DNA from: Phocaeicola sp.
GTDB taxonomy: Bacteria > Bacteroidota > Bacteroidia > Bacteroidales > Bacteroidaceae
Length of the DNA stretch: 64,000 nt
Direction: 5' to 3'
Assembly (NCBI GenBank): GCA_051648565.1
Contig: JBOFFJ010000183.1
Coordinates: forward strand, 30,993 to 94,992
Shown: piece by piece, positions 3,735 to 30,205 of the stretch
Numbering within the stretch: position 1 is the stretch's first letter
Layout of the letters: each line of letters opens with the position of its first letter
Notes under the pieces: generated by a model
What the model was told of the DNA's origin: nothing
Database searches by the model: none
Seen by the model: only the letters and a program-made list of their open reading frames with translations
Program-made: the position numbers and the translations under genes

Positions 3735-3849
3735 AATTTATCTATTCTATGGCAATCAATAACCTTAATCTATTTATTTTTTAGGTGGCAGGAGGTGTAA
3801 CTCCATCCATAACCTGACTCTCTTTAACTGGAGTAGAGAGCGGGTCATT

Positions 3850-4887: not shown

Positions 4888-4894
4888 ACCGAGC
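4857..4894. repeat. Perfect inverted repeat (18-bp arms, 2-nt spacer) spanning the hydE start codon
   Basis: GCTCGGTATGCAACTTAT-CA-ATAAGTTGCATACCGAGC read directly. Confidence 0.9.
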
Positions 4895-4906
4895 GTAATT
4901 GTTATG

Positions 4907-6385
4907 TTATTCAGACTGGCTGTTCTCATAGGTAAGTGGCTGTTTATTCAGCGCTTGTGTGAGTTGACGTTTACCCGACGAAATATCGTTGTGTGTACAA
5001 GGGCCGGTAATACATCCTCCCTCACACGCCATCACTTCAATGAAGGATGCTGGTGATTTTCCCGACTTGGCATAAGCACGTAACAAGGCAATGTTCTTTT
5101 TGTTCAAGTCGGCTACCTGAATGCCTTGAACCTCTTTGTTGTCGAGTTTTAAAAAGGCCTTTACAGCACCCATCACACCACCTGCTTGTGCAAAAGCGTG
5201 TGCTTCGCGTACCGACGAGAAATTCATGTTGTAGGCGGCACTCTTCTCGAGTTCAATATCCATTCCATCTAGTAGTGAACCAACCTCTTCAAAGGTGAGA
5301 ACGTAATCGACTGCTTCGTCTCTCTTGGCCTCTTTTCGTTTAGCCAAGCAAGGGCCTACAAATACGATTTCGGCATCGGGATGTTTCTCTTTGGCTAGGC
5401 GAGCGGTGTAGTACATAGGCGATCCTGTAGTCGATACATAGGGTTTTAACTCCTTTACATGTTTCTCTACCAATTCAATGTAGGAGGGGCAGCAGGAGGT
5501 AGTCATAAAGGGTTGTCCCTCTTCTATCTTTTCAAGTAGTTCGTGTGCTTCGTTGCTTACCGTATCCATAGCACCCTGTGCCACTTCAATAACATCGGTA
5601 AAACCAATCTCTTTAAAAGCTCCATACACCTGTTCGATGGTGGTTTTAAACTGCCCCAAAATAGAGGGGGCTATAATGGCTACCATGGGTTTCCGGTCTC
5701 TGATTTTCTGCAATACGTCAAACACCTGTGAGATTTCGAAGATGGCTCCAAAAGGACAAGCGTTCAAGCACTTTCCACAATAGATGCATTTGCTTTCGTC
5801 AATGTGCTCAATGCCATATTTATCTTTGCTAATGGCCTTTACAGGGCACGCCTCTTCGCAAGGTACCGGTATGTAAACAATAGCGTGGTAGGGGCAACTG
5901 CGGTGGCAAATGCCACAACTTATACAGGTTTCGTGGTCAATGGTAGCTTGTCCTGTTTTCTTGATACGTACCGAATCTTTGGGGCAGTTTACCACACAAC
6001 TTCGGGCTATACAGCCACGACAGAGGTTGGATACTTCATAATTAATTTGCACACAAGCCGAGCAAGCCTCGTCTATCACACACATGATATTCTCCTTGGG
6101 TTTTCCCTCCTTAGCACGAGTCAAAGCCTGTTTTGCATAGCCCGAAAGGGGAGTCAATTCATCTTTCTCGTCATTCATATCAAGCCCTAGTAGGGGGAGG
6201 GACTTGTATTTCCAGATGGCGCGTTCTTTGTGGATGCAGCATCGACCCATGGTCTTTGCTTTTTTAGGAGTTAATTGAAGGGGCAGTCTATCTACATTTT
6301 CGACTAATTGGTGGTTCTTCCATAATCTCACAAGCTCTGCCATTAGCTTGTGACGGACAATCATAACATTATTTGTAAAAGCCAT
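4907..6385 (-). CDS. hydA: Monomeric [FeFe]-hydrogenase, probably group B, with ferredoxin-type 4Fe-4S domains
   Basis: H-cluster motifs TTSCCPSY, GPCLAKRKE, EVMACEGGCITGP; several CxxCxxCxxxCP motifs N-terminally; clustered with hydE/hydG. Confidence 0.92.
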   Translation of the reverse strand: MAFTNNVMIVRHKLMAELVRLWKNHQLVENVDRLPLQLTPKKAKTMGRCCIHKERAIWKYKSLPLLGLDMNDEKDELTPLSGYAKQALTRAKEGKPKENIMCVIDEACSACVQINYEVSNLCRGCIARSCVVNCPKDSVRIKKTGQATIDHETCISCGICHRSCPYHAIVYIPVPCEEACPVKAISKDKYGIEHIDESKCIYCGKCLNACPFGAIFEISQVFDVLQKIRDRKPMVAIIAPSILGQFKTTIEQVYGAFKEIGFTDVIEVAQGAMDTVSNEAHELLEKIEEGQPFMTTSCCPSYIELVEKHVKELKPYVSTTGSPMYYTARLAKEKHPDAEIVFVGPCLAKRKEAKRDEAVDYVLTFEEVGSLLDGMDIELEKSAAYNMNFSSVREAHAFAQAGGVMGAVKAFLKLDNKEVQGIQVADLNKKNIALLRAYAKSGKSPASFIEVMACEGGCITGPCTHNDISSGKRQLTQALNKQPLTYENSQSE

Positions 6386-12760: not shown

Positions 12761-13741
12761 ATGTCTACGATTTCTGCATCTCAATTACTAAATGAGGTAA
12801 ATGGTTATTTGCAAACCATCTCCTATGTGCGCCAGCCACAACAGCTCTATGCACCCATTGAATATATACTCGCTTTGGGTGGTAAACGTATCCGTCCTGT
12901 ACTTATGCTATTGGCCTATAATCTCTATAAAGAGGATGTAAAGGCTATTCTTCCGCAAGCTTTGGCTATTGAAACGTACCACAATCACACGTTGTTGCAT
13001 GACGATTTGATGGATCATGCCGATGTACGACGGGGTAAGCCAACGGTACATAAGGTGTGGGATGAGAATACGGCTATTCTTTCGGGCGATACCATGTTGC
13101 TACTCTCTTACCGTTTGTTGGGGGAGTGTAACCCTGCCTATTTGCCAGCTGTTTTATCGCTTTTTACCGAGACTAATATCGAAATATGCGAAGGGCAGCA
13201 GTGGGATATGGAGTTTGAAACACGTCAAGATGTGACGGTGGTGGAGTATATGGAGATGATTCGACTCAAAACATCGGTGCTTGTAGCTACCTCTTTGAAA
13301 ATGGGGGCTATACTGGGCGATGCTTCGCCAGCCGATGCGGAAGCACTTTACCAATTTGGTATTCAAATGGGGTTGGGCTTTCAATTGCAGGATGACTACT
13401 TGGATGTATATGGTGATGCTGCTGTTTTTGGTAAGAACATTGGAGGAGATATTTTGTGTAACAAAAAAACCTTTATGCTCATTACGGCACTGGCTAGATG
13501 CAACGAGGAGCAACGACAACGATTGACGCAGTGGTTAGATGCGGTAGCCTATGTTCCGCAGGAGAAGATTGCTGCGGTAACCGCTCTTTACAACGAATTG
13601 GGAATAAAAGCGTGCTGCAAAGCCGAGATTGAGGCCTATTACAACCGTGGGTTCGCCATACTCGATGCGATAGATATGCCCCAAGAGCGCAAGGCCGAGT
13701 TGCGCCAGTTTGTTTCCAACCTTATTAATAGAGATGTATGA
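12761..13741 (+). CDS. Polyprenyl diphosphate synthase (IspA/IspB family)
   Basis: GGKRIRP, first Asp-rich motif LHDDLMD..RRG, GQQWD, KT, second motif FQLQDDYLD. Confidence 0.93.
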   Translation: MSTISASQLLNEVNGYLQTISYVRQPQQLYAPIEYILALGGKRIRPVLMLLAYNLYKEDVKAILPQALAIETYHNHTLLHDDLMDHADVRRGKPTVHKVWDENTAILSGDTMLLLSYRLLGECNPAYLPAVLSLFTETNIEICEGQQWDMEFETRQDVTVVEYMEMIRLKTSVLVATSLKMGAILGDASPADAEALYQFGIQMGLGFQLQDDYLDVYGDAAVFGKNIGGDILCNKKTFMLITALARCNEEQRQRLTQWLDAVAYVPQEKIAAVTALYNELGIKACCKAEIEAYYNRGFAILDAIDMPQERKAELRQFVSNLINRDV

Positions 13742-14511
13742 TGTTAATTGATACCCATACACACCTTTTTGCCGAAGAGTTTGCCGAAGATTTGGATCTT
13801 GTTATAGCGCGTGCGCAAGAGGCAGGTGTTCAAAAGCTCTTTCTCCCTAATATTGACGAGGATTCGGTAGAGCCTATGTTGAAGGTTTGCAATGCTTATC
13901 CTACTTGCTGTTTCCCCACCATTGGGCTACATCCCACTTCGGTAGGTAAAGATTATAAGGAAAAGTTGGCTCATTTGCATACCTATTTAACGCAGTCGCA
14001 CCCTTTTGTAGCCATTGGCGAGGTAGGATTGGACCTTTATTGGGACAAAACCTATGCCAAAGAGCAGGAGACAGCCTTGCATACCCAAATAGGTTGGGCT
14101 TTGGAGTATGATTTGCCCTTGGTTATTCACTGTCGCGAGGCTTATCCCGAGTTGTTAGCCTTGCTTGAGCAGTACAAAAAAGAGCCATTAAGTGGCGTTT
14201 TTCATAGTTTTGGCGAGTGTGTTGAGGTGGCTCAACAGTTATTAGAGTATCCTCGTTTCTTTCTCGGAATTAATGGAACTGTAACATTTAAGAAATCTAC
14301 CTTGCCCGAAACCTTGAAACAGCTCCCTTTGGATAGACTGGTACTAGAAACGGATTCGCCCTATTTGTCGCCTATGCCTTTTAGAGGGCGCAGAAACGAG
14401 AGTGGCCATGTGCAGTATGTGGCACAGAAGCTGAGTGATATTTACGAGGTCTCTCCAGAGGTAGTAGCTGCTGTAACCAGTGCAAATGGTACAAAACTGT
14501 TCAAAATGTAA
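13738..14511 (+). CDS. tatD: TatD family metal-dependent nuclease/hydrolase
   Basis: IDTHTH, GLHP, AIGEVGLD, IHCR, FHSF, LETDSPY. Confidence 0.93.
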   Translation: MMLIDTHTHLFAEEFAEDLDLVIARAQEAGVQKLFLPNIDEDSVEPMLKVCNAYPTCCFPTIGLHPTSVGKDYKEKLAHLHTYLTQSHPFVAIGEVGLDLYWDKTYAKEQETALHTQIGWALEYDLPLVIHCREAYPELLALLEQYKKEPLSGVFHSFGECVEVAQQLLEYPRFFLGINGTVTFKKSTLPETLKQLPLDRLVLETDSPYLSPMPFRGRRNESGHVQYVAQKLSDIYEVSPEVVAAVTSANGTKLFKM

Positions 14512-14857: not shown

Positions 14858-15616
14858 ATGAAAAAGTTATTTGCAATTCTTGCAGTGATGGGAGTCCTTA
14901 CTTTAGGATCTGTACAACCAGCTATGGCACAAGAAGAGACCGCTCAAACAGAACAAGTGGTAGTAGAAGAGGGTGGTGGCCTTCACAAAGAGTTAAAAAC
15001 TAAGTATATTGAGGGGGGTGCTGACTTTATGTCATTGGTATCTATCGCATTGGTTTTAGGTTTGGCTTTCTGTATTGAACGTATCATCTATTTGAATCTT
15101 GCTGAAGTAAATACTAAAAAATTGATGGAAAGTATCGAAGCTTCTTTGGAAAAAGGAGATCTTGAAGGTGCTAAAACAGTATGTCGTAACACTCGTGGTC
15201 CTGTAGCTTCTATCTGTTACCAAGGTTTGATGCGTGTAGACGAAGGTTTGGACGTAGTAGAACGTTCTGTAGTATCTTACGGTGGTGTACAAGCTGGTTA
15301 CCTTGAAAAAGGATGTTCTTGGATCACACTATTTATCGCGATGGCTCCATCTTTGGGTTTCTTGGGTACTGTAATCGGTATGGTTATGGCATTTGATAAA
15401 ATCCAACAAGCGGGTGATATCTCTCCTACAGTAGTAGCAGGTGGTATGAAAGTTGCCTTGATTACAACAATCTTCGGTTTGGTTGTAGCTTTGATTCTTC
15501 AAGTATTCTACAACTATATTCTTTCTAAAATTGAAGCTATCACAAGCCAAATGGAAGACTCTTCTATTACATTGCTTGATATGGTTATGAAATACAACTT
15601 GAAATTCAAAAAATAG
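14858..15616 (+). CDS. exbB: MotA/TolQ/ExbB proton channel protein
   Basis: APSLGFLGTVIGM, GGMKVALITT..GL motifs; 3 TM segments. Confidence 0.92.
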   Translation: MKKLFAILAVMGVLTLGSVQPAMAQEETAQTEQVVVEEGGGLHKELKTKYIEGGADFMSLVSIALVLGLAFCIERIIYLNLAEVNTKKLMESIEASLEKGDLEGAKTVCRNTRGPVASICYQGLMRVDEGLDVVERSVVSYGGVQAGYLEKGCSWITLFIAMAPSLGFLGTVIGMVMAFDKIQQAGDISPTVVAGGMKVALITTIFGLVVALILQVFYNYILSKIEAITSQMEDSSITLLDMVMKYNLKFKK

Positions 15617-15623
15617 ATAGAAT

Positions 15624-16082
15624 ATGACAAAGTTATCATATAGAGTATCTTACTATGTATTATATGCTTGTATCGCACTTCTTTTTGTGGTATTTGGTGT
15701 CTTCTATACTGTAGGATATCATAATATTGTTGGAGAATATAATTTCCCAGAACATACTGAAACTCTTATGTATTTTATGTATGCTATGTTGGGTGTATGT
15801 GTTGTAGCAACCCTTTTAGGGGCTTTTGCACAGTTTCTTGCAGCATTAAGAGACAATCCTAAGGGTGCTATCAAATCATTAGTTGGTATTGTACTGTTTG
15901 GTGCTGTTCTACTAGTAGCCTATAACATGGGATCTACTGAGCCAATTATGACTGGTGATGGTCTTTTTACAGATGCAGTTGATTTAAAAGTTACTGACAT
16001 GATGATTTATGCTATCTACTTCTTGTTGATGGTAGCATCTGCTGGTACGCTTGTAAACCTATCAGGTATCTTTAAGAGATAA
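15624..16082 (+). CDS. Conserved 4-TM membrane protein of the Bacteroidetes exbB-exbD operon
   Basis: Four hydrophobic segments; co-oriented between exbB and exbD. Confidence 0.75.
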   Translation: MTKLSYRVSYYVLYACIALLFVVFGVFYTVGYHNIVGEYNFPEHTETLMYFMYAMLGVCVVATLLGAFAQFLAALRDNPKGAIKSLVGIVLFGAVLLVAYNMGSTEPIMTGDGLFTDAVDLKVTDMMIYAIYFLLMVASAGTLVNLSGIFKR

Positions 16083-16118
16083 TAGTATCACATTAGTAAA
16101 AAAAAAAAAGAGTAAATA

Positions 16119-16712
16119 ATGGCAGGAAAAAAAAGAGTGATGCCTGGAATCAATTCCAGCTCAACAGCCGATATTGCCTTTATGTTGCTTATTTTCTTCC
16201 TAACGACAACATCAATGGATACCGACCGCGGTTTGGCAAGACGTTTGCCACAACCACCGGAAAAGGAGCAAACTAAAGATGACAACATTATCGTGAAGGA
16301 ACGTAATGTACTCCAAGTTCGCCTTAACAAGGATAATATGATTATGTGCGGACAGGATTATGTGGAAATTAAGCAATTAAGAGATAAAGCAAAAGAGTTT
16401 ATTGCTAATCCGTATGATGATGAAAATCTTCCTGAAAAACATAGAAAAGAGATTATCTTGTTGGGAGATTGTATGATTACTGAGAAGCACGTTATTTCTG
16501 TACAAACAGACGTTGGTACAAGTTATGATGTTTACTTTCAGGCTCAGAATGAGTTGATTGCTGCATACAATGAGTTGAGAGACGAGTTGGCAAAATCAAA
16601 ATTTGGAACATCTTATATTTCATGTAACGAAGACCAACAGAAAGCGATACGTGATTTCTATCCACAAAAGATTTCTGAAGCTGAACCTAAAAAATATGGA
16701 GGCAAGAAGTAA
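16119..16712 (+). CDS. exbD: Biopolymer transporter ExbD/TolR family
   Basis: N-terminal TM with SSTADIAFMLLIFFL (conserved Asp). Confidence 0.9.
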   Translation: MAGKKRVMPGINSSSTADIAFMLLIFFLTTTSMDTDRGLARRLPQPPEKEQTKDDNIIVKERNVLQVRLNKDNMIMCGQDYVEIKQLRDKAKEFIANPYDDENLPEKHRKEIILLGDCMITEKHVISVQTDVGTSYDVYFQAQNELIAAYNELRDELAKSKFGTSYISCNEDQQKAIRDFYPQKISEAEPKKYGGKK

Positions 16713-17176
16713 TGGGAAAATTTAATAAAACGGGAAAACGTGGAATGCCCGAGTTGAATACCTCATCTCTACCTGACTTGATCTTCACCATGTTGTTCTT
16801 CTTTATGATTGTAACAACCATGCGTGAGGTAACCTTAAAGGTTCAATTTCAGGTACCACAAGGTACTGAGCTCGAAAAATTGGAAAAGAAATCATTGGTA
16901 ACATTTATCTATATTGGTAAGCCAATGCCTGAGTTCCAAAAGAAGATGGGTGCTGAAAGTCGTATTCAGTTAAACGATAAATTTGAAGATGTAGGTGCCG
17001 TTCAGGACTATATTACTCAAGAGCGTTTGAATATGAAAGAAGAGGATCAACCCTTTATGACAGTTTCGTTGAAGGTCGATAAAGAGACTAAAATGGGTGT
17101 TGTAACGGATGTGAAACAAGCACTTCGTCAAGCGTATGCTTTAAGAATTAACTACTCTGCTACAGATCGTCAGTAG
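16712..17176 (+). CDS. exbD: Biopolymer transporter ExbD/TolR family (second copy)
   Basis: TSSLPDLIFTMLFFFM TM motif; VSLKVDKETKMG.V.DV. Confidence 0.9.
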   Translation: MGKFNKTGKRGMPELNTSSLPDLIFTMLFFFMIVTTMREVTLKVQFQVPQGTELEKLEKKSLVTFIYIGKPMPEFQKKMGAESRIQLNDKFEDVGAVQDYITQERLNMKEEDQPFMTVSLKVDKETKMGVVTDVKQALRQAYALRINYSATDRQ

Positions 17177-17189
17177 TTTAATCCATACT

Positions 17190-17226
17190 AAAAAAGAGAT
17201 TGCAAAACTGCAATCTCTTTTTTTTT
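17190..17226. terminator. Bidirectional terminator between exbD and the convergent accessory locus
   Basis: AAAAAAGAGATTGCA-AAAC-TGCAATCTCTTTTTTTTT. Confidence 0.85.
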
Positions 17227-17345: not shown

Positions 17346-18230
17346 TTAATAGAAATCTGAGATGGCATTTGCAGCCATTTGTGTGTAGCTATGTGCTACG
17401 CCTGGTACTTCTCTCTTCTCCCAGTTAAAGTTGCCATACTCGGCTCCTAAAGTGGATGAATGCTCCCAAAAGTAAAGCCCTCTTTCGTATCGATGCAGCC
17501 CTTGTTTATCTGTCTCTGGCGAATGATTTAAGTTGGCATCATTGGGATTGGTATCATTCTGCCCCAGTTGTAGAATCAGCTGATTGCTCAGTGCCTTTTT
17601 AATCTTAGTCACATTGCTTGGCGAATCTTTGAGTCCGTAGGGGAACTCCACCTCCCAGTCAGGAACGGTATACCACCCTGCATTGGCGGAGATGGCTTGG
17701 CCAATGGGGGCATCGGGTTTGAATAGGAGGTAGCGATGTACAAACTGTGCACCTGCCGAATGTCCCCACATGTCATAACTGGTGGGCTGGATGGAGAGCT
17801 CTTGGCAGATGTATTGAAACAGCGGTTCAATGAGGGAGAAGGTCCACTCTGCTTCTGTTTTTTCTTTCTTATTCAGAAACATGCCTCCTTCGATGTAATC
17901 GGCAGAGGGATAAAACTTGGTGGAGAATTCGAGTGCGAAGAGTAGAATCCCTTTCTTGTCGGCTCCTGCTTTCCAAGCTTCGAGGTAGTCATCTGCATTT
18001 CTGTTTACTCCGGGAAAAAGGAATAGGATGGGCATCTTGCTTATATCTCCTTTGGGAATGTAGTAGTGTACCTGAACAGGTTTTTGTGCCAATGGCTGGT
18101 ATTTGTTGTAGGTTACTACTCCTGTGCCTTGCTGAAAGATTTCACTGTTGCCCTCTTCCATGGGATCACCTCCCCAGCAGCTTGTCAAGGCAAGCAGCAT
18201 GAGGAGGTGAGCTAATTGGGTTATTTTCAT
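17346..18230 (-). CDS. Lipoprotein alpha/beta-hydrolase (serine hydrolase; possibly poly(aspartate) hydrolase PahZ1-like)
   Basis: Lipobox LTSC, nucleophile elbow GHSAG(AQFVHR), ANAGWY, candidate Asp in GQNDT and His in GVAH; the PahZ1 resemblance is recalled, not computed. Confidence 0.75.
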   Translation of the reverse strand: MKITQLAHLLMLLALTSCWGGDPMEEGNSEIFQQGTGVVTYNKYQPLAQKPVQVHYYIPKGDISKMPILFLFPGVNRNADDYLEAWKAGADKKGILLFALEFSTKFYPSADYIEGGMFLNKKEKTEAEWTFSLIEPLFQYICQELSIQPTSYDMWGHSAGAQFVHRYLLFKPDAPIGQAISANAGWYTVPDWEVEFPYGLKDSPSNVTKIKKALSNQLILQLGQNDTNPNDANLNHSPETDKQGLHRYERGLYFWEHSSTLGAEYGNFNWEKREVPGVAHSYTQMAANAISDFY

Positions 18231-18239
18231 GATCTAGTG

Positions 18240-19451
18240 TTAGAATACAATGTGGGTGTTAATGCCTACCGAAAAGAGTTTATTCTCTTTGTCAAGGTCT
18301 GAGTAGTTTTCGTATTGTCCTACTAGTTGCAACTTAAGGCGGTTGTCAATGATGTATTTGGCTACACCAAAGCTTATTCCGTCAGTTTTCTTTATGAGAC
18401 TTTGCTTCTCTCTCCACTCTGGCGTCAGATGGCTGTATCTAACATCAATGGCCCAGTTCTTCGGGAAAAGGTATCCCGCTTGTGCACTGATGCCACTACC
18501 TAGTACCAAGTAATCGGCTATTTGGGTAGGTTGAAGTTTAGAGCTGGAGCTGGTTGTCAAGTGGAGATTGTCTAGGTTGCGGGCCCAAGCATCTACATAC
18601 TCTGTTAGGAAGGTAAATCCTTGGTACTTGAACATCAAGTTGAGTGACATCTTGATGTAGTCGGGAAATGCTTTCTTGCCAGTTGCATCGTACATCATAA
18701 AGTTGCCATGTCCCTCACCAATGGCATCACTTGCTCCACGGTTGTAGCTATACGATCCCCCAATAAGTAATTTAGGGGTTTTCTCGCGCGCAAAGTCGGT
18801 ATCGGTTAGGTGATTCCCTTCTGCGAAGAAGCCCATTGGATAAAAGGTGGCTTGCGCACTGTACTTTAATCCTCCTAAATCGAAATCGGTAGATGAGCTA
18901 CCAAAGGAGTTAATTCCATCTCCAGTAGTGACAGCTACCCCTAGGTCGAATCCTGTTTTTTGTAGAGGAAGGCGTGTCTCTACAAAGAGTCCTAGTTCGC
19001 GTCCTGTATTGTAAAAAGTACGGTTGGTTAAGCTTCTATTTCCCAGTGCTAAGGCTTGATCATAAAACATCATGGAGCGTGTACCCGAAAAGGATTGTTT
19101 TTGACCGACACTGATGGATAGGTTCTTTAATGGATTGTAGCCAATCCATGCATCTAGTAGTGGATACGAACGGGTGAAATCCATTTGAAGCTGAAACGTA
19201 AACTGTTCATCATTCAGTCCACCACTTAGGCCTAGATAGGCACGGTTAATGTCGAATCGGTATTCGGCATCTGTTCCTTTGAGTTCTGAATAGGCTCCTC
19301 CTGCCTGAACAAAGCCACCTACATTGAAATAGTGTTTCCCTTTGTTGAGTTCTACCGTTAATCCATTTCCTAATTGGAAGTTGGTGCGACTGTTTTGTGC
19401 CAACGCACCCATTGCAAATGTTGCAAATAGTATAGTTATAATTTTTTTCAT
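18240..19451 (-). CDS. Outer-membrane porin, OprO/OprP (phosphate-selective porin)-like
   Basis: Signal peptide, alternating beta-strand pattern, RFDINRAYL, SVGQKQSF, GRELG motifs, C-terminal Phe. Confidence 0.75.
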   Translation of the reverse strand: MKKIITILFATFAMGALAQNSRTNFQLGNGLTVELNKGKHYFNVGGFVQAGGAYSELKGTDAEYRFDINRAYLGLSGGLNDEQFTFQLQMDFTRSYPLLDAWIGYNPLKNLSISVGQKQSFSGTRSMMFYDQALALGNRSLTNRTFYNTGRELGLFVETRLPLQKTGFDLGVAVTTGDGINSFGSSSTDFDLGGLKYSAQATFYPMGFFAEGNHLTDTDFAREKTPKLLIGGSYSYNRGASDAIGEGHGNFMMYDATGKKAFPDYIKMSLNLMFKYQGFTFLTEYVDAWARNLDNLHLTTSSSSKLQPTQIADYLVLGSGISAQAGYLFPKNWAIDVRYSHLTPEWREKQSLIKKTDGISFGVAKYIIDNRLKLQLVGQYENYSDLDKENKLFSVGINTHIVF

Positions 19452-21021: not shown

Positions 21022-22422
21022 TTAAAATGCGAGTTGGAATAATAAGGTGAAACTTTTCTCCCATCCACTTACTGACTCCTCATTGGGGTTGCGAATCGTT
21101 CCATTGGTCTTGGCTAGCCCAAAGTTGGCTTGTACTTTGGCGGCATACGATTTACTTAAATATTTGGTCACGCAGAAATCCATGTAATCGCTTCGGTTGA
21201 AGAAAAGATCGTTGTTCATGAATGAATATTCATCAGGCATAAGGTGGGTGTAGCGCACATCGAACGAGAAGAAGTTGCGCATCAGATAACCTGCCTGGAT
21301 GTTGTAACCCGAACCAATCATCATTCTATTTTTGATGTAGTTCTCTATGTTATTCTCTCCATTAATCGTAAAGTCTGACGATACAGTTCCGTCTGTACGT
21401 ACGCGGTAAGCAATAGATGAAGGAACATGTGCCCAGGTCTTTACATACTCTCCCAACATGCTAAATCCTTGCCACTTAAACATAAAGTCTAGTGTAAGCT
21501 TACCCATATCGGGTAGTGCACTCCTTTTATCGGCATCTTGGTAAAGAATAGCTCCTCCTTCGCGTCCGCCTCTACGGTCACTTACTCCATCGTTGTAGCT
21601 GTACGAAGCTCCTATAACCAATCTGGGTTTAATCTCGAAAGCTAGATCAGATTGGCGTGTTTCGCCAGCTAGGCGGAAGAGGCCAAAGGGAAGGTAGTTT
21701 AGGCGTGCACCATATTTTAATCCACCGTATCTCTTCTCGGCACTGATGGGCCCATCGCCATCGGTTATTGAAACCGAGGGGCGCAGGTAGCTAGAGGTAC
21801 CCACTTTGTAAGTGCCTGAAGCAACCACACCAATTTCTCGGATGGTACCAAAGAGTGAGCTTAACTTACTTCGGTCTGTAAACTGCAGGGTGGCAGAGTT
21901 CATCTGCAACTCGCGGTTGTCGGTAGGGGTTGAACGTTGTCCAAAAGAGATGGAGAGTTTGTTATTTCCCCAAGGGTGATAGGCTACAAAAGCATCGGAT
22001 AGCATCGCTCCAACCCCTTCGGCATCGGTTTCACTTCCCTTTACCATATCTAGTCCCAATCGGTACCTTATTTTGTTGTTAAAGGCTTTCCCATTCAGTC
22101 TAAGGCGGGCACGTCTTACCCTAAAGCGTGAATAGAGCTCATCGCCTTCAGGGTACATTTGGGTTTGAAAGGTGGTTTGAATATAGCCACTCAGGTTCAT
22201 TCCATAGGAATCGGTAGTGGAGAGAAGTGAGATACCATCTCCCAATGTATAGCTATCTAATTGAAATCTCTTTTTCATTTGGTAGAGATCCTCTGCATAG
22301 TCTCCATCTTGTAGGTCATCGAAATCAATCGACACATCTTCATCCGTCTGTGCAAATAGAGGAACGCCCATATTTCCTAGCAGGAAGAGTGTGATAAATA
22401 GAACTAGTTTGTTTATTTTCAT
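21022..22422 (-). CDS. Outer-membrane porin, OprO/OprP-like (paralogue of 18240-19451)
   Basis: Signal peptide from MKINKL; RFRVRRARL, SFGQ, IREIG, GGLKYG motifs; C-terminal Phe. Confidence 0.75.
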   Translation of the reverse strand: MKINKLVLFITLFLLGNMGVPLFAQTDEDVSIDFDDLQDGDYAEDLYQMKKRFQLDSYTLGDGISLLSTTDSYGMNLSGYIQTTFQTQMYPEGDELYSRFRVRRARLRLNGKAFNNKIRYRLGLDMVKGSETDAEGVGAMLSDAFVAYHPWGNNKLSISFGQRSTPTDNRELQMNSATLQFTDRSKLSSLFGTIREIGVVASGTYKVGTSSYLRPSVSITDGDGPISAEKRYGGLKYGARLNYLPFGLFRLAGETRQSDLAFEIKPRLVIGASYSYNDGVSDRRGGREGGAILYQDADKRSALPDMGKLTLDFMFKWQGFSMLGEYVKTWAHVPSSIAYRVRTDGTVSSDFTINGENNIENYIKNRMMIGSGYNIQAGYLMRNFFSFDVRYTHLMPDEYSFMNNDLFFNRSDYMDFCVTKYLSKSYAAKVQANFGLAKTNGTIRNPNEESVSGWEKSFTLLFQLAF

Positions 22423-22441
22423 GTTGAATGATTTAAATGGA

Positions 22442-23587
22442 TTATACTTCAAAATTACCTTTGCGAACCATCTTCTGCTCTTTCATAAACTCTATGCCTT
22501 GAGAGATGACATGCGTGAGTCTGAATGATTGATCGAAGAAGCAGAAGTCGGCATCATAGCCCACCTTTATCTCACCTTTATTTTTCAATTTCATATTCTT
22601 GGCTGCATTCTCCGTAACCAGCTTAAAGGCATCTTTGGGATGCATTCCTCCTTCGGTAATGAGTTTGATGGTCTGCTCTAAGTTTAGATGCAAGGGTGCC
22701 AACTTGTAGGTATCTACACCTGTTATTGGGTCAATGCGTCTTACACCTGCATTGCCATCACTGCTGAAAGAGATTCTACTGATGTCGACTCCTTGTTCCA
22801 ATGCCATCAGTACCGCTTTATAGGGCTCTGTAAATTTGGTTCCTCCAGTAGATATGTCAATCATGCCACCTAACTTGGCAAACTCAATTGCTTGATTAAA
22901 TAGCGCTTCGGTTCGGATGGTATGGGTGGGTGAAATGTAATGAACAAGTGTGGGATACTTCTTGGCTATATCGAGTAATAGCGACATGCCATCGGGCAAT
23001 CCTCCTAGGTGAACATGCATCACTCCTCCTTTGGCCGATGTAAAGCCACCCAAACGTACTTGGTTAATAATGCGTAGCAATTCCTCTTCGGTGGGGTGTG
23101 AGCTTCGGTCGTCACAGATGGCAATCTTACACCCGATAACTGGATCGATGTAGATTAAATCTTCGGTTACCGAGTTGGTGAGCGTCGGCGTAGGAAGACC
23201 ATAAAAGCCTGTTAGCATGTAGGCAGAAAGTCCATTCATTCTTAATGACATGGTTTTAGCATAGAGCTGGGGTAGTTTCTTTACAAATCCATCTGTACCT
23301 AGTAGCCCTACTACGGTAGTGGTGCCACAGGCTACTAATGCTTGTACTTGCACCTCGGGTGCTAATGAGCTAAAACCTGTTTGGCCACCGCCGCCAATCA
23401 CATGTACGTGAATGTCAATCAATCCTGGAGTAACCCAGGCCCCTGCTGCATCAATTACTTCTACCTCTAAGTTGCCCGTATCGATGCAACTATCAATGGC
23501 AGCAATCTTATTGTTGTGAATAAGAATCTGTTTTAAATCGGCCTCTACACTGTGATAAAGGCGTGCGTTTGTTATAAGTTTAAACAT
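22442..23587 (-). CDS. iadA: Beta-aspartyl peptidase / isoaspartyl dipeptidase, IadA-like amidohydrolase
   Basis: PGLIDIHVHVIGGGG, GTTTVVGLLGTDG, MLTGFY, IGCKIAI.D.RS, HVHLG, PTH..R, SSDGNA align with E. coli IadA metal-ligand motifs. Confidence 0.88.
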   Translation of the reverse strand: MFKLITNARLYHSVEADLKQILIHNNKIAAIDSCIDTGNLEVEVIDAAGAWVTPGLIDIHVHVIGGGGQTGFSSLAPEVQVQALVACGTTTVVGLLGTDGFVKKLPQLYAKTMSLRMNGLSAYMLTGFYGLPTPTLTNSVTEDLIYIDPVIGCKIAICDDRSSHPTEEELLRIINQVRLGGFTSAKGGVMHVHLGGLPDGMSLLLDIAKKYPTLVHYISPTHTIRTEALFNQAIEFAKLGGMIDISTGGTKFTEPYKAVLMALEQGVDISRISFSSDGNAGVRRIDPITGVDTYKLAPLHLNLEQTIKLITEGGMHPKDAFKLVTENAAKNMKLKNKGEIKVGYDADFCFFDQSFRLTHVISQGIEFMKEQKMVRKGNFEV

Positions 23588-24998: not shown

Positions 24999-26456
24999 CT
25001 ATTCTCCTCTAACTAATCCTGCCTTGTCACTACTTCCACTTCCTAGTTGGTCGTAAAGAGCAGCAGGTACCGTATAGGTTACTTCAACACCATCAACTTT
25101 ATTCTTACCCATGTTGAGTGTTTTTAAATTGGCATAACTTGTTGGCCGAATAAAATCGGCTGGTACTATTTCATTGGCGCTTAAATTAATAGTAACTAGG
25201 AGACTATTTTTGCTTAGATCTACCGCTTTTAATCGATCGAGTGAACTTGATGCTGATCCTTGAATATCTAAATTGATCAATTTAGTATTTTTCGATAGAT
25301 CCAATACGCTAAGGCCTGCCGTACGTACAATAAGTGATTTTAGCTCGGTTAAGTTCTCAAGTGGAAGAGCCTCTGTAAAGGCGTTAGAGGTAGCTATAAT
25401 TTCAGTCACTCCCGAAAAGAGTTGTAGCCCATCTGCATTGGCTATTTTTACAGCTGCAGTAGCTATGCCTGCTGTTTCTAGTTTAGTAATAAAAGCGCTC
25501 GCTTTACTGATGTTTAGAATACCTGTATAAGTGGCTGCAATCTCGGTGTCGATATAGATTTTATCCTCTTTAAGAATCACAACTCCTTCTGGCAATTTCA
25601 AAGTAGCATCTTCCACATTATTCATTAAGTAGTACAGATAGTCTGCAAAGGCTTGGTCTTTGACTAGGTACTCCTTGTCCGAAGGTGTTTCGCCATTGTT
25701 ATCTTCGGCTGGTTCAACTCCCTTTTTGGTTATTAATTGGTCGTATAGATCTTGTGGAATGGGGAAGTTAGCACCTGTATTTCCTGATAAATCTAGATCG
25801 ACTAAGTTCGCATACAAAGTAGGCAGCTTTAATCCCTCTTTCGTAATGAGGTGATTGATTAGATAGATGTGTTCGGCTTTTGTATTTCCAGCTAAGTCAA
25901 TGGCTGTAAGTCGTTGGTTCTCGGTTGCGCTTGAGCTAGCACTGTATCTTAATCGCTTAATCGAGGTAGGAAGGATTAGTTCATTGACCAAGTTGGCATT
26001 CATTTCAAGCGTGTCTAACTGGGTAAGTTCACTTAAATCCAACTTCCCTTCGACTGAATTTGAGGTTAGCTTTAAGTTGCTGCATTGCGTGAAATATTGA
26101 ATTCCATCTAAGTTACTAATTTTTACAGCTGCCGAGGCTACTCCTGCTGCTTCGAGTGCTTCAATGCGCTTTGCATCTTTTACTAGGTATAGTGCTTTTA
26201 CCTCTTTTGCTTTAGTTGTATCGAGTAGAAAATTATCATCTTGTTTGATACAGATGCCATAGGGTAATAGATTTTCGCTTGTTGCTGCTAACGTAGTGTT
26301 ATAAATTAAGTATTCGGCAAATGCTACGTCACTGAGTGGGTATAAGGTTGTTTCATCTGGTTCTTCTACTGATGATTGAACATCTTCTGTAGAGCAACTG
26401 AAGAAAAAGGAGATAAACCCGATTAGGAGCATGAAGTGGTGTGTAATTCTTCTCAT
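24999..26456 (-). CDS. Leucine-rich-repeat surface lipoprotein made of two homologous ~210-aa modules
   Basis: Lipobox FFFSC; LxxLxLxxN repeats; internal duplication DVAFAEYLIY.../DQAFADYLYY... Confidence 0.8.
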   Translation of the reverse strand: MRRITHHFMLLIGFISFFFSCSTEDVQSSVEEPDETTLYPLSDVAFAEYLIYNTTLAATSENLLPYGICIKQDDNFLLDTTKAKEVKALYLVKDAKRIEALEAAGVASAAVKISNLDGIQYFTQCSNLKLTSNSVEGKLDLSELTQLDTLEMNANLVNELILPTSIKRLRYSASSSATENQRLTAIDLAGNTKAEHIYLINHLITKEGLKLPTLYANLVDLDLSGNTGANFPIPQDLYDQLITKKGVEPAEDNNGETPSDKEYLVKDQAFADYLYYLMNNVEDATLKLPEGVVILKEDKIYIDTEIAATYTGILNISKASAFITKLETAGIATAAVKIANADGLQLFSGVTEIIATSNAFTEALPLENLTELKSLIVRTAGLSVLDLSKNTKLINLDIQGSASSSLDRLKAVDLSKNSLLVTINLSANEIVPADFIRPTSYANLKTLNMGKNKVDGVEVTYTVPAALYDQLGSGSSDKAGLVRGE

Positions 26457-26777: not shown

Positions 26778-28256
26778 TTAATCGGCCATTTTTAGGAGGT
26801 CGGCAAAAGAGAGAGTAAAGGTTTCTCCATAGACCTGTTTATACTCTTGGCAGAATTTATCATAGAAGGTTTTAGCAGCAGAGTGTCTTCCTGATTTTAC
26901 GTAAGCTCTGCATTTTAAAGAGAGAGCTTGTTCATTGATACTTTCAAATTTAAGCATTACATCGGCCATTCCAATGTAGATATCGGTTGTATGATTCTCA
27001 TTCATGGTGGCCGAATAGGCTAGAAACTTATCAAAGAGTTCATTCGAGATGTTACCCTTTAATTCATCTAGCCATTCGTATGGCTGCTCAGGAAGTATAT
27101 TTCCTTGCGCAGTCAATGAACAGAGTAGTTCGATTTCCGATCTGGATCGTAATCCTACTGCTCCTAAGGTTGTACGATACTGTAAATAGTCTATAAATGC
27201 GTCCTTCGTTTGAATGCTCCAATAGCTGTCATCGTTCGTGATTTCAAAGTCGCCCACCTCTGTTAACAGGTTGCGTAGTTTTCCTAGATTTACTGCCCTG
27301 TTATTACGCGCACTGGCTACTGTTTTATCCAGCCATAGATAAGATTTCATCTTTTCGGCCGAAATCCCTTTTTTATCCGAATGGAGAATCAGAAGAGCCA
27401 GTAACTCTTTTAGAATGGGAGAGAATCGTTTGGTTATATCTTCGCCTTCTTTGTTATAGATGCGCATTCCACCAAAGAGGTAGATAGCCGATTTAGTAGG
27501 AAGTAGGGGCTTGCTTAGGTAGATAGGAGAGCTTAAAGATACCTCATTCAAGTTACTGCTTCCCTCTTTTTTTAGTTTCCGATGTCGGTAGTACATCCAT
27601 GAGAAAATCAGGATGTCAAGTACAATAATTACTATGTACCAGATAATTGAATTTCCTTTTCGTGAATCTTGGACAGCCTCTACGCTGAAATTTTGAATGG
27701 TTGGACCATCTCTCTCTTGGATGGAGTGATTAGAAGGGGTTGTATTTAGATGAATGGCAAATTTATACCCGTAATCAACCGAAAGTCCAGTCTGCCCTAT
27801 CTCAATGGTATTATTCTCTCCTACGCAGAGTTTTACCAGATCTTTGCGCATGTCGAATTCAATTAAAATGGGAATGCTAGTTGCCTCAAAAAAAGAGGAA
27901 CCTATGGGTATACTCTTTTTGGTTAGTGTCATGTTCTTACCAAAAAGAAGGTTTAAACTGTTTAATTTAGGCTCTCCATCTAGAATGAAATAGATTGTCT
28001 CTTTTTGTGAGGTAGTAGCTGATAACAAGAAGAAGCTAAAGTCGGTCGACTCTTTTCCTCTGGCTAGATTAAACCGGATGGTTACTTTTTCATCAAAATA
28101 AGAGAATTCATTCTCCGATAGAAAGGTTTCGGGATCAATCTCGATTAATCTCCTTGTTGACTCATTTCCGAGTAAATTGGTCGGTAAAATGGAGCAGATG
28201 AGCCATACAAGAAGAAGTCTACACATGAATGAACTGTTTCTAACGTTGATATGCAT
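26778..28256 (-). CDS. Membrane-anchored one-component transcriptional regulator (periplasmic sensor - TM - SARP/BTAD-like DNA-binding region)
   Basis: Signal-like N-terminus, single TM IIWYIVIIVLDILIFSWMYY, then IYLFGGMRIYNKEG.DIT..FSP.LKELL...W.DK...SARNNR.VN..KLR typical of Bacteroidetes SARP-like activators. Confidence 0.78.
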   Translation of the reverse strand: MHINVRNSSFMCRLLLVWLICSILPTNLLGNESTRRLIEIDPETFLSENEFSYFDEKVTIRFNLARGKESTDFSFFLLSATTSQKETIYFILDGEPKLNSLNLLFGKNMTLTKKSIPIGSSFFEATSIPILIEFDMRKDLVKLCVGENNTIEIGQTGLSVDYGYKFAIHLNTTPSNHSIQERDGPTIQNFSVEAVQDSRKGNSIIWYIVIIVLDILIFSWMYYRHRKLKKEGSSNLNEVSLSSPIYLSKPLLPTKSAIYLFGGMRIYNKEGEDITKRFSPILKELLALLILHSDKKGISAEKMKSYLWLDKTVASARNNRAVNLGKLRNLLTEVGDFEITNDDSYWSIQTKDAFIDYLQYRTTLGAVGLRSRSEIELLCSLTAQGNILPEQPYEWLDELKGNISNELFDKFLAYSATMNENHTTDIYIGMADVMLKFESINEQALSLKCRAYVKSGRHSAAKTFYDKFCQEYKQVYGETFTLSFADLLKMAD

Positions 28257-28363: not shown

Positions 28364-28903
28364 CTATCCTAGTTGGTTGTATACCTCTCTGTGAATCTCC
28401 GATTTAATCTTTTTATACTCCCGCTCCATGTTGATGTTGCCATAGCTCATTAAATAGAGTGGTAGCTCTTGGCCTCCTACTCGGTAGGGGGGCTGTATAT
28501 AGGGCAGTTCGTGTAGCGTAAAATCAGCTCGTTTGTAGAAGTTGATTCTTCTGCTACTCATTTCGTCATTGGGATGCTCTACCTCTAGAATGATGGGGAG
28601 ATTTCCGGCAATCTCTTTGATTTTATCTAAGAGCTGTTTCCCATAGCCTCCGTTGCGTAGGTTAGGATCAATGGCTATATGCTCTACGTAGCAAAAAATG
28701 TCAAACTTCCACAGGTTGACAAACCCTATAAGCTGCTCTTCCTCTTCTATTATATAGCAGTGAAAGTGGGAATTGTTATCGGTATAGAAGCGTTGTGCAT
28801 CATTCTCTCTTCGTTCTACTTCGGGAAAGGCAGTCACTAATAAATTCTCTACAAAGGTATACTCCTTTTCATCGGTTGTTTTAATCTTTCTAAGTTTAAT
28901 CAT
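28364..28903 (-). CDS. GNAT family N-acetyltransferase
   Basis: YVEHIAIDPNLRNGGYG acetyl-CoA motif, ILEVE, RRINFY. Confidence 0.88.
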   Translation of the reverse strand: MIKLRKIKTTDEKEYTFVENLLVTAFPEVERRENDAQRFYTDNNSHFHCYIIEEEEQLIGFVNLWKFDIFCYVEHIAIDPNLRNGGYGKQLLDKIKEIAGNLPIILEVEHPNDEMSSRRINFYKRADFTLHELPYIQPPYRVGGQELPLYLMSYGNINMEREYKKIKSEIHREVYNQLG

Positions 28904-28906
28904 GGT

Positions 28907-30205
28907 TTACTCTTTGGGGTTAGGTTTGGTATAAAAATTAATAAGTCGCTCTAATGCCCGTTGGCATACTGGACAGAAATCGGGTGCCTCATTGGTTCGC
29001 ATACGGCAATCGGTTGTAAGGCGATAGATCCCTTTTCTGGTATATCCAGCTCCTTCGTATAGGCCTACTTGCTTGTATTTCTCTTCTCCCTGCTCTATGG
29101 GAGGTGTTGGTCGGCTTGTATGGGGAGGCACCATATCTTCCCATTTGCTTTTAAAATCGACTAGTGTGGTAATGTTCTGCTCCCAAGGCTCTACTGAATA
29201 GGGATGGTAGGGGCTGGGTTCGTCACCATAGGCATATTCATCGCCTAATCCACCAAAGCTATGTCCAAATTCATGAACGATAACGGGGCGAAATGAATCT
29301 TTATTACTGGTTGCTATGGTATAGGAGTTGTAGATTCCTCCTCCTCCATATACTGCCGCATTGGTTAGGATAATAATATGCTCATAGGGTATGTTTAATA
29401 GGGTATTGTGTAACCTCTTAATTTGGCTAGTGGTAAGGTATCTGTCCGAGTAGAAGGTATCGAAGTGAGCCCCTAGTGCGGTCTCTTTCCAATCTCCATT
29501 TCGCGGTATGCTTACCCCGCTCTCTAGGGAGGGGCTGGCCACGGCTACTACATTAAAGCTAGAACGGTGCTTGCCAAATGGTTCATGGCTAAAGATGGCA
29601 TCGCAGGTTCGCTCTGCCTCTTCGTAAAAGAGTTCCATCTCTTCGGCTCTATACCCTTCGGCTACAATGGCTATATCAATGCACTGATCGTTCTCGCCCG
29701 ACTGTAGGAGATACCGATAAGGTGTTACGCTATCATTTCCTCTTTGTTGTATCAAAATATCAGTTGGCTTTACCACGTGTGTAAATGAGGCTGTTGTTTC
29801 GTGGTATTTGTTAGTTAGCTCTACGGTAACGGCTACCTCTTTTTTAGGATAGGGTATGAGGAATACATTTTCAAAGCTACGTTGGGTGTGTGTGGCCTCC
29901 TCTTCGCAAATCCACTCTTGAAATAAACTCGAAAATGAGGTGGTGTAGATGGTTTGATTGCTCTCTTTCTCCTTTACTATAATACGTCCATTGCCAGCTA
30001 AAGGCAATTCGCTTAGTTGATGTTTTCTACCAGCCCAAGTGGGAAAAGCGAGTAGTTGGTCTAGATAGATGGCTTGGTGGGCCGAATCGCCTACAAACTG
30101 ATAGTCTAGTCGGAGTGTTTGGTTGGTGAAGTGATCGTCGAAGGTTTGTGAAAAGCTGGTCGTGCAAAAACAGCTTAACAGAGCAAGTGTTACGAAATTT
30201 TTCAT
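28907..30205 (-). CDS. Secreted M64 family metallopeptidase (IgA peptidase-like)
   Basis: Signal peptide; AEGY, FDTFYSDRYLT, YGGGG, VHEFGHSFGGLGDEY, C.MR....FC.VC. Confidence 0.9.
   Translation of the reverse strand: MKNFVTLALLSCFCTTSFSQTFDDHFTNQTLRLDYQFVGDSAHQAIYLDQLLAFPTWAGRKHQLSELPLAGNGRIIVKEKESNQTIYTTSFSSLFQEWICEEEATHTQRSFENVFLIPYPKKEVAVTVELTNKYHETTASFTHVVKPTDILIQQRGNDSVTPYRYLLQSGENDQCIDIAIVAEGYRAEEMELFYEEAERTCDAIFSHEPFGKHRSSFNVVAVASPSLESGVSIPRNGDWKETALGAHFDTFYSDRYLTTSQIKRLHNTLLNIPYEHIIILTNAAVYGGGGIYNSYTIATSNKDSFRPVIVHEFGHSFGGLGDEYAYGDEPSPYHPYSVEPWEQNITTLVDFKSKWEDMVPPHTSRPTPPIEQGEEKYKQVGLYEGAGYTRKGIYRLTTDCRMRTNEAPDFCPVCQRALERLINFYTKPNPKE

Follow-up and report, generated by a model that had tools for sequence, protein, structure and literature searches.

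An IadA-like amidohydrolase with a probably remodeled head-group pocket in a conserved operon of the Bacteroidota that ends in a homologue of poly(aspartic acid) hydrolase-1

The stretch of DNA analyzed here, 64,000 nucleotides of a Phocaeicola sp. contig (GenBank assembly GCA_051648565.1, contig JBOFFJ010000183.1, positions 30,993 to 94,992 of the forward strand) and referred to below as the window, carries an intact, full-length open reading frame (ORF) of 381 amino acids that encodes a homologue of the isoaspartyl dipeptidase IadA of Escherichia coli, in which the glutamate that holds the alpha-amine of the substrate, Glu77, is replaced by a glutamine. Seven closely spaced genes of the minus strand, of which this one is the third, are separated by gaps of -11 to 28 nt and encode, in the order of transcription, a leucine-rich repeat (LRR) lipoprotein, a DcuC carrier, the IadA-like protein, a porin, an M14 carboxypeptidase, a second porin, and an alpha/beta-hydrolase lipoprotein similar to PahZ1 (Table 1). 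The comparison of this protein and its locus with their relatives points to a subfamily with a rebuilt substrate pocket, which appears to belong to a utilization system for an acidic, aspartate-type polymer or oligomer.

Table 1. Features of the operon and its immediate surroundings, with the codons discussed in the text (positions are those of the window)
Feature	Coordinates	Strand	Evidence and remarks
Symmetric hairpin (A-run, stem-loop, T-run)	17190..17223		Between the convergent pahZ1-like and exbD genes; pattern match only
PahZ1 (poly(aspartic acid) hydrolase-1) homologue, lipoprotein	17346..18230	-	Lipobox LTSC, GHSAG box, PDB matches
Outer-membrane porin B	18240..19451	-	Paralogue of porin A (28-31% identity)
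Secreted M14 zinc carboxypeptidase, 509 aa	19480..21009	-	PF00246, 6e-25; HGDE, NRD, and FHEY motifs present
Outer-membrane porin A	21022..22452	-	Signal peptide; PF07396 Porin_O_P, 2.7e-07, 30.6 bits against a gathering (GA) cutoff of 20.9; syntenic
IadA-like (MEROPS M38-type) binuclear-metal amidohydrolase	22442..23587	-	ORF, PDB matches, TIGR01975, fold
Gly281-Val282-Arg283 codons	22739..22747	-	Gly281 at the Ser289 site (contact for the beta-Asp alpha-carboxylate); Arg283 at the Pro291 site, start of the gate loop
Asp160 codon	23108..23110	-	At E. coli His168; adjoins the substrate-carboxylate ligand Arg169 (window Arg161)
Leu75 codon	23363..23365	-	At E. coli Arg83; Arg in 90% of canonical members, Leu or Met in the clade
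Gln69 codon (CAA)	23381..23383	-	At E. coli IadA Glu77, the alpha-amine clamp; HMMER alignment
DcuC-family inner-membrane carrier, 459 aa	23594..24973	-	NF037994 DcuC_1, 393 bits; PF03606, 1.8e-69
LRR lipoprotein, first gene of the operon	24999..26456	-	Lipobox FFSC from the translation; weak LRR_4 match; syntenic in 19 loci
Membrane-spanning protein, 492 aa, upstream of the operon	26778..28256	-	Syntenic in 18 loci

The affiliation of the ORF is clear from a HMMER search against all PDB sequences, in which the top matches were exclusively isoaspartyl dipeptidases, with E values of 2e-72 to 3e-62. The minus strand at 23412-23377 reads CAC GTA CAT GTG ATT GGC GGC GGT GGC CAA ACA GGT, i.e., HVHVIGGGGQTG, and the alignments to the PDB chains of IadA place Gln69 on E. 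coli Glu77, which confirms the presence of Gln at this site, as put forward in the original prediction from the sequence. The GGGGQ motif is identical in PDB entry 2AQO, an engineered E77Q mutant of the E. coli enzyme. The metal ligands and substrate residues that had been described as retained were all found in the alignment, and comprise, with E. coli numbering in brackets, the ligands H60 (H68), H62 (H70), K154 (K162), H193 (H201), H222 (H230), and D277 (D285), together with Y129 (Y137), R161 (R169), R225 (R233), and T98 (T106). All the metal ligands and catalytic residues are invariant among 32 homologues, down to 61% identity, and are also kept across the wider clade.

The characterized enzymes of the family, that is, E. 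coli IadA (PDB 1ONW, 1ONX, 1YBQ; M38; TIGR01975), CpsIadA, LmIadA, and FiBAP, are 33-38% identical to the window protein and have the same two-domain fold, an amidohydrolase (beta/alpha)8 barrel with an N-terminal beta-sandwich. An AlphaFold2 model of the protein (predicted local distance difference test, pLDDT, 86.8; predicted template modeling score, pTM, 0.89) was compared with known structures in Foldseek, where the top 28 hits were IadA chains, with template modeling (TM) scores of 0.85-0.89, and the next family, NagA, reached 0.65. Shared with the E. coli enzyme are thus the ligands of the binuclear metal center, including Lys162, the carboxylated lysine of the E. coli enzyme (“type II”) and a ligand that may also be Glu in the family, Tyr137, a contact of the transition state, Arg169 and Arg233, which bind the carboxylate of the leaving amino acid, Asp285, and Thr106, as well as the cytoplasmic location, given that the window protein has no signal peptide. 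Three features of the IadA equivalog are absent, i.e., Glu77, Ser289, and the curated score, since the TIGR01975 (isoAsp_dipep) model gives 320.2 bits, below the equivalog cutoff of 331.25. In the Thr106/Ser289 pair, which binds the head group, the threonine is kept (Thr98) and the serine has become Gly281.

The substitution at position 77 is neither an error nor a peculiarity of one strain. Among the 120 closest proteins from a collection of 5.8 billion sequences (61-100% identity), 119 have Gln at this position and the remaining one has Glu. Across twelve independent loci, the Gln codon is either CAA or CAG, and the Gly, His, and Val codons around it vary by synonymous changes, which indicates that purifying selection holds the residue through the turnover of synonymous codons. 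A sequencing error or a strain-specific allele can thus be ruled out, given the 119 of 120 and the use of both codons, and the same is true of the possibility that Gln is common in canonical IadA, considering that only two of the 133 representatives of the whole family (clusters at 50% identity with a readable motif) have Gln, in comparison with 110 that have Glu. The two observations that had been named as fatal to the original prediction were therefore not made, and the gene represents a distinct, selectively maintained subfamily rather than a loss-of-function allele.

The canonical enzymes need this glutamate. The E77Q variant of E. coli IadA is reportedly strongly impaired. In CpsIadA, from Colwellia, the OE1 atom of E80 and T109 bind the alpha-amine of the substrate, Cys297 (equivalent to E. 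coli Ser289) binds the head-group carboxylate of beta-Asp, and the E80Q mutant folds normally, yet is inactive on beta-Asp-Leu (PMC5517026), which bears out the assertion that loss of this residue impairs a canonical enzyme. The glutamate is also kept, as E73, in LmIadA, which comes from a cyanophycin cluster (PMC10206079).

The glutamine is, nevertheless, only one part of a broader change. In a neighbor-joining tree of 150 family members, the window protein groups with a monophyletic clade of Bacteroidota, and a comparison of 28 members of this clade with 68 canonical sequences, limited to sites whose conservation reaches 80% or more in the canonical group and whose residue is shared by no more than 10% of the clade, yielded five positions, namely 77, 83, 168, 289, and 291. 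Glu77 is replaced by Gln, Lys, or Thr among the 28 members (Gln, Lys, Thr, Arg, Asn, or Gly over the clade as a whole), His168 by Asp, Ile, Val, or Glu, with the Asp gained in the Gln subclade, Ser289 by Gly in 28 of the 28, and Pro291 by Arg or Lys. In the window protein, the five changes are Glu77 to Gln, Arg83 to Leu, His168 to Asp, Ser289 to Gly, and Pro291 to Arg, and the gate loop is basic rather than acidic, in line with the net charge of residues 289-299, which is +0.7 in the clade and -1.0 in the canonical enzymes. By contrast, Thr106, Tyr137, Arg169, Arg233, Asp285, and the metal ligands are unchanged. Relatives outside the clade that lack Glu77 have also lost Thr106, Tyr137, and Arg169, and are not comparable.

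At two of the five positions, the canonical residue is known to contact the head group of beta-Asp with its amino and carboxyl functions, and the overall pattern suggests that the clade has rebuilt the site for the zwitterionic head of the substrate without altering either the catalytic core or the place where the leaving amino acid is bound by its carboxylate. The changes at Ser289 (Gly281), Arg83 (Leu75), His168 (Asp160), and Pro291 (Arg283) had been overlooked in the original prediction, which attributed the specificity to Gln as a single substitution. Neither part of this attribution stands, given that the change spans five positions and that the same type of locus mostly has Lys at position 77, with Thr, Arg, Asn, or Gly in other cases. 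The E. coli E77Q (2AQO) and CpsIadA E80Q (PDB 5XGX) mutants share the GGGGQ motif with the window protein, but they are single changes in a canonical background, are inactive on beta-Asp-Leu, and serve to trap the substrate, whereas the Gln of the window protein occurs naturally, is conserved, and comes together with four other changes in the pocket. The broader claim of a new specificity subfamily is well supported by the comparative evidence.

The locus itself is conserved over a wide range of marine, freshwater, and gut Bacteroidota. A scan from the side of the IadA-like gene recovered 21 genome loci, from Bacteroidales, Draconibacterium, Limibacterium, Capnocytophaga, Polaribacter, and Flavobacteriaceae, which share the DcuC, IadA-like, porin, M14, porin, and PahZ1-like genes, often together with LRR and membrane proteins. 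The one canonical relative, from Photobacterium (L020, with Glu77, His168, and Ser289), has a DcuC-like neighbor alone. From the side of PahZ1, a query with a single sequence gave one locus and a query with an alignment gave 80, and an IadA-like gene lies within 10 kb in 42 of these 80. In the 41 PahZ1-linked genes with a readable motif, residue 77 is Lys in 30, Gln in seven, Thr in two, and Arg and Asn in one each, with neither Glu nor Asp in any of them, and position 289 is Gly in all 41. The expectation that Q77 would co-segregate with the locus thus holds for a non-acidic residue, and does not hold for Gln itself. In about half of the 80, no IadA-like gene lies within this distance, so that PahZ1-like paralogues also occur on their own.

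The system seems to employ two alternative solutions for import through the outer membrane. In Draconibacterium and two metagenome-assembled genomes of Bacteroidales (L007:10716-15458, L012:10720-15441, L017:12378-17050), a SusC/SusD pair directly follows the M14 gene and replaces both porins, which makes the locus in these genomes a classical system of the polysaccharide utilization locus (PUL) type; SusC/SusD are absent from the locus of the window, which has two Porin_O_P-like porins instead. The clustering of all the ORFs of the loci revealed further recurrent neighbors, that is, a lipoprotein with Calx-beta and lamin-tail domains (LTD) in 32 loci, a DASS Na+:dicarboxylate symporter in 23, a MocR/GntR regulator in 21, and an SDF (DctA/GltP-type) symporter in 11. 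The Calx-beta and lamin-tail lipoprotein replaces the LRR lipoprotein in many loci of Flavobacteriia (L061:2293-3297 and 31 others), and, as Calx-beta domains bind Ca2+, could suit the capture of a polyanion complexed with calcium.

Equally informative is the last gene of the operon, whose best match in the PDB is PahZ1 of Sphingomonas sp. KT-1 (6VE6; E 4.4e-51, 37% identity), followed by PahZ1 of Pedobacter sp. KP-2 (9O7U; E 2.2e-49, 35% identity) and, more weakly, by an LpqC-type putative polyhydroxybutyrate (PHB) depolymerase (3D0K; E 2.3e-35). The triad Ser158/Asp226/His280 and Arg247 are invariant in the alignment of PahZ1 homologues (A1) and correspond to S157, D225, H280, and R246 of the KT-1 enzyme, of which the triad and the specificity residue R246 (R215 in KP-2) have been validated experimentally (PMC13017698). 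The two characterized enzymes are mutually 35-41% identical, and six of the six homologues tested, with 35-93% identity to KT-1, degrade poly(aspartic acid) (PAA) (PMC13017698). The homologue of the window is as similar to both of the characterized enzymes as these are to each other, and it lies within the similarity range of the PAA-degrading members, and is predicted to act on the beta-amide bonds of poly(Asp). The KP-2 enzyme cleaves beta-tri(Asp) and not beta-di(Asp), which leaves beta-Asp-Asp dimers, and its best site is (beta-L-Asp)-(D-Asp) (PMC4456602). Pedobacter has so far yielded no homologue of PahZ2 (PMC13017698). An enzyme that stops at dimers, with no PahZ2 known in its host, requires a downstream enzyme, and the product of the IadA-like gene is the evident candidate for this role. 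Two PahZ1-like genes are present in many Flavobacteriia, within one locus or at separate sites of the genome (L016:1587-2375 and 13312-14103; L039, L042, L100, L071/L044, L076/L040).

The remaining genes of the operon are consistent with the handling of an external substrate. The DcuC gene, which is located 6 nt upstream of the IadA-like gene and is syntenic in 63 loci, is proposed to encode an importer of a small acidic product, and the M14 carboxypeptidase, syntenic in 64 loci and with weak PDB matches to bacterial CCP-like M14 enzymes, is proposed as an exo-trimming enzyme. Porin A is related to the anion-selective OprO/OprP family; with the listed TTG start, its ORF shares 11 nt with the end of the IadA-like gene (22442-22452), and an internal ATG (MKINKLV..., just ahead of the signal peptide) may be the true start. 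The LRR lipoprotein is a possible surface binding protein. The protein of 492 amino acids encoded upstream of the operon has no match in Pfam, NCBIfam, or the PDB, and has a hydrophobic stretch near its N terminus and a transmembrane helix in the middle (around IIWYIVIIVLDILIFSWMYY), and its position makes it a candidate transmembrane sensor or regulator; a MocR/GntR regulator is found in its place in the loci of Flavobacteriia. The hairpin at the other end of the operon is likely a bidirectional terminator that marks the operon end, although the scan for promoters and terminators, with the overall number of terminator-like sites, was at chance level.

Farther from the operon, a cluster of ExbB, a small membrane protein, and two ExbD genes (TonB energy transduction; 14858-17176, plus strand) converges on the pahZ1-like gene, and a peptidase M64 gene (IgA-peptidase-like, with an M64_N domain) followed by a GNAT acetyltransferase gene lies directly upstream of the locus (28364-30205, minus strand), with the M64 peptidase not syntenic with the locus in other genomes. 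The large subunit of an [FeFe]-hydrogenase and a pair of genes similar to radical-SAM maturases, of which one carries a BATS domain (2313-6385, minus strand), indicate that the host is an anaerobe. A search of sequencing runs found partly matching DNA (approximately one-fifth of the sampled words) in frog metagenome runs only, and no RNA data.

Taken as a whole, these features favor, with a little more than even probability, the interpretation of the IadA-like protein as a competent cytoplasmic amidohydrolase of the IadA type with a rebuilt head pocket, which would perform the last step in an operon for the use of an acidic, beta-linked polymer or oligomer of the aspartate type. Both the substrate and the route proposed here are inferred from the sequence features, conservation, synteny, and homologies described above. 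The polyanion would cross the outer membrane through the two OprO/P-like porins, or SusC/SusD in some lineages, and its beta-amide bonds would be cleaved by the PahZ1-type serine hydrolase, after which the secreted M14 carboxypeptidase would trim the fragments, the DcuC-type carrier would import the small products, and the IadA-like enzyme would hydrolyze the residual beta-aspartyl amide bond to yield free aspartate. As Lys or Arg at position 77 cannot sit against an ammonium, and the residues met there are hydrogen-bond donors, the facing group is most simply a carbonyl or carboxylate, and the same orientation would apply to the added Arg or Lys at position 291. This group may be the beta-Asp unit that forms the N-acyl part of a trimer or oligomer, or the carboxylate of a head group in the D configuration.

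A preference for substrates with a blocked or absent alpha-amine, as proposed originally, is thus a reasonable reading. The more specific suggestion of internal poly-Asp units gains unexpected support from the PahZ1 homologue that ends the operon and from the position 77 that is never acidic in the PahZ1-linked genes, although a D-configured head group fits these data likewise, so the candidates for the substrate include N-blocked beta-Asp oligomers, D-isomers, or another polyanion. A still broader view is conceivable, if rather doubtful, in which the operon is the solution of the Bacteroidota to an unrecognized class of natural polyanions rich in beta-linked (iso)aspartate, and the Glu77-less clade is a “PahZ2-equivalent”, i.e., a cytoplasmic hydrolase for amine-acylated or D-configured beta-aspartyl bonds, an activity that has been seen in no characterized IadA.

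A number of points weigh against the interpretation of a rebuilt, polymer-related IadA. The beta-Asp-Asp products known from PahZ1 carry a free alpha-amine, and a carrier of the size of DcuC suggests a small substrate, both of which fit a blocked amine poorly unless trimers or D-forms are involved. Poly-beta-aspartate is not known as a natural polymer, and thermal poly(aspartic acid) (tPAA) is synthetic, so that the locus may in fact serve a different substrate. One PahZ1-like domain, in Brevifollis, is fused to a CapA-like poly-gamma-glutamate (PGA) module. The equivalents of Arg83 and His168 are not discussed in the papers on FiBAP and CpsIadA, and these two positions are putative pocket residues. 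In the AlphaFold2 model, the pLDDT falls below 50 at residues 65-73 and 97-102, which are the active-site loops GGGGQTG and GTDG; this low confidence, in an otherwise confident model, may reflect the shallow alignment of 32 sequences, the absence of the metals, or genuine flexibility. The PahZ1-linked IadA genes form one clade, so that the lack of an acidic residue in 41 of 41 does not represent 41 independent events, and the link with PahZ1 is a single evolutionary association that was maintained over a wide radiation.

Lastly, Glu77 persists in only two members of the clade, P0034 and P0122. Neither has PahZ1 on its contig, both contigs being short. The surroundings of P0034 (L102:3512-8272) contain DcuC, IadA, M14, and an Asp/Glu racemase, with a beta-lactamase-family gene nearby, and P0122 (L103:1-3438) adjoins a gene for a beta-lactamase-family hydrolase, a context which hints at the metabolism of D-amino-acid peptides.

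The simplest alternative, which we hold to be unlikely, is that of an ordinary isoaspartyl dipeptidase, in which Gln or Lys at position 77 is neutral and the amine contact has been taken over, for example, by Asp160 (position 168), with beta-Asp-Asp and other beta-Asp-X as substrates. The beta-Asp-Asp dimers left by the KP-2 PahZ1 do need a dipeptidase (PMC4456602), the DcuC neighbor of the canonical Photobacterium IadA indicates that this pairing predates the change, a relocated contact is possible for the Gln subclade, which gained the Asp, though not for the Lys/Ile majority, and P0034 and P0122 retain Glu, while some members are named beta-aspartyl-peptidase by NCBI. This explanation is difficult to reconcile, however, with the loss of activity of CpsIadA that follows the equivalent change (PMC5517026), with the Lys or Arg at position 77 and Ile or Val at 168, i.e., no compensating acid, in most of the locus-linked members, with the loss of Ser289 and Arg83 along with Glu77, and with the score below the TIGR01975 equivalog cutoff. 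A paralogue that is catalytically dead or in decay, whether a pseudoenzyme or an allele of one strain that has lost its function, is hardly credible, even though a single substitution inactivates a canonical IadA (CpsIadA E80Q, PMC5517026), since the ORF is full length, its metal ligands and catalytic residues are invariant in the 32 homologues and the wider clade, Gln is kept through synonymous codon turnover, and the tight operon has conserved synteny in more than 60 loci; this conservation effectively refutes the pseudoenzyme.

Other alternatives retain an active enzyme and shift the chemistry of its substrate. Specificity for a D-configured head group (beta-D-Asp-X), through which the locus would clear racemized or D-Asp isopeptides, is rather improbable, although a swap of the amine and carboxylate would explain both the donor or cation at position 77, where Lys, Arg, Gln, Asn, and Thr are all compatible with a carboxylate, and the loss of Ser289. 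The best site of the KP-2 PahZ1, (beta-L-Asp)-(D-Asp), points in this direction (PMC4456602), as do the Asp/Glu racemase and the hydrolase with a beta-lactamase fold of the related locus L102, but that locus is a variant that keeps Glu77, the racemase is not recurrent in the PahZ1-linked loci, and the model is too poor at the active-site loops for arguments from geometry. Similarly, there is only a small chance that the locus serves a natural polyanion of another kind, for which poly-gamma-glutamate, poly(beta-malate), and matrix proteins rich in Asp and Glu may be considered, so that the enzyme would cleave, for example, gamma-Glu-Glu or an amine-less beta-malyl ester or amide, and the activity of PahZ1 homologues on tPAA, as an isosteric synthetic polymer, would be a side reaction. 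An ancient locus that is widespread in marine, freshwater, and gut habitats contrasts with a synthetic tPAA, and the CapA-like fusion in Brevifollis, the relationship of PahZ1 to esterases of the PHB-depolymerase type, the cleavage of gamma-Glu and beta-Asp isopeptide bonds by M14-clan enzymes (e.g., CphZ), and the suitability of a neutral donor at position 77 for a hydroxyl group are all in keeping with this possibility. On the other hand, all six of the tested PahZ1 homologues (35-93% identity) degrade PAA and the equivalent of R246 is conserved here, the retention of Thr106, Arg169, and Arg233 implies an amino-acid-like leaving group with an alpha-carboxylate, and no PGA- or malate-specific gene was found in the loci. 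A cyanophycin cluster was ruled out, given that no cyanophycinase (peptidase S51) was matched among the eight genes of the locus (Pfam, NCBIfam) or the recurrent neighbors, and that Lys or Arg at position 77 is unsuited to beta-Asp-Arg.

The favored interpretation, that of an IadA-type enzyme at the end of a polymer-utilization operon, has counterparts in several known systems. The PahZ1/PahZ2 pathway of tPAA degradation (KT-1 6VE6, KP-2 9O7U) shares with the window a PahZ1 homologue, and proceeds by endo-cleavage of beta-amide bonds and the conversion of the oligomers to Asp; the second step in the window would differ, being catalyzed by the M14 carboxypeptidase and the IadA-like enzyme, as no PahZ2 homologue is known in the Bacteroidota. 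In cyanophycin clusters, composed of cyanophycinase, IadA/IaaA or the M14-clan CphZ, and a transporter, an IadA-family or M14-clan enzyme is likewise found with a transporter, a beta-Asp isopeptide is the end product, and an external Asp-based polymer is scavenged, but the locus of the window has no cyanophycinase (S51) and the IadA of those clusters keeps Glu77 (E73 in LmIadA). With the SusC/SusD PULs, the locus shares a general plan in which a co-regulated set of genes provides a surface binder, a route through the outer membrane, depolymerases in the periplasm, a carrier in the inner membrane, and a finishing enzyme in the cytoplasm, although it has two OprO/P-like porins and its enzymes are peptidases or amidases, not glycoside hydrolases. 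Known IadA genes, in turn, either stand alone or are part of a cyanophycin cluster, unlike the gene of the window, which is embedded in an operon of secreted enzymes, porins, and a transporter.

Full-text searches of the literature found no paper that links IadA-type enzymes with PahZ1 or describes this operon; the 2026 paper on PahZ1 contains, in a text search, no mention of an operon, gene cluster, or isoaspartyl, and the gene context is not mentioned in the PahZ1 papers examined. Sharon et al. noted that the isoaspartyl dipeptidase(s) of the cyanophycin-making Bacteroidota remain undiscovered, and although the Glu77-less clade would be a poor fit for beta-Asp-Arg, it does show an overlooked diversity of IadA-like proteins in this phylum. 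What appears to be new here is, then, a specificity subfamily with a defined signature together with a conserved, previously undescribed putative utilization locus.

These results offer a testable function for widespread proteins that are annotated as “beta-aspartyl-peptidase” or “amidohydrolase family protein”, and provide candidate genes for the second half of poly(aspartic acid) degradation in the Bacteroidota. They also illustrate how a member of the amidohydrolase superfamily may be retargeted by the exchange of a small head-group module (positions 77, 83, 168, 289, and 291) while the catalytic core is kept, and this module may be of use for the prediction of function and for the engineering of sets of polyaspartate-degrading enzymes. 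Finally, PahZ1 has been studied so far only as a degrader of a synthetic polymer, and its presence in a conserved operon that also encodes components for import and export implies a natural substrate; if this is indeed a polyanion of beta-linked aspartate, a polymer would be the physiological substrate of PahZ1 in the gut, in freshwater, and in the sea.

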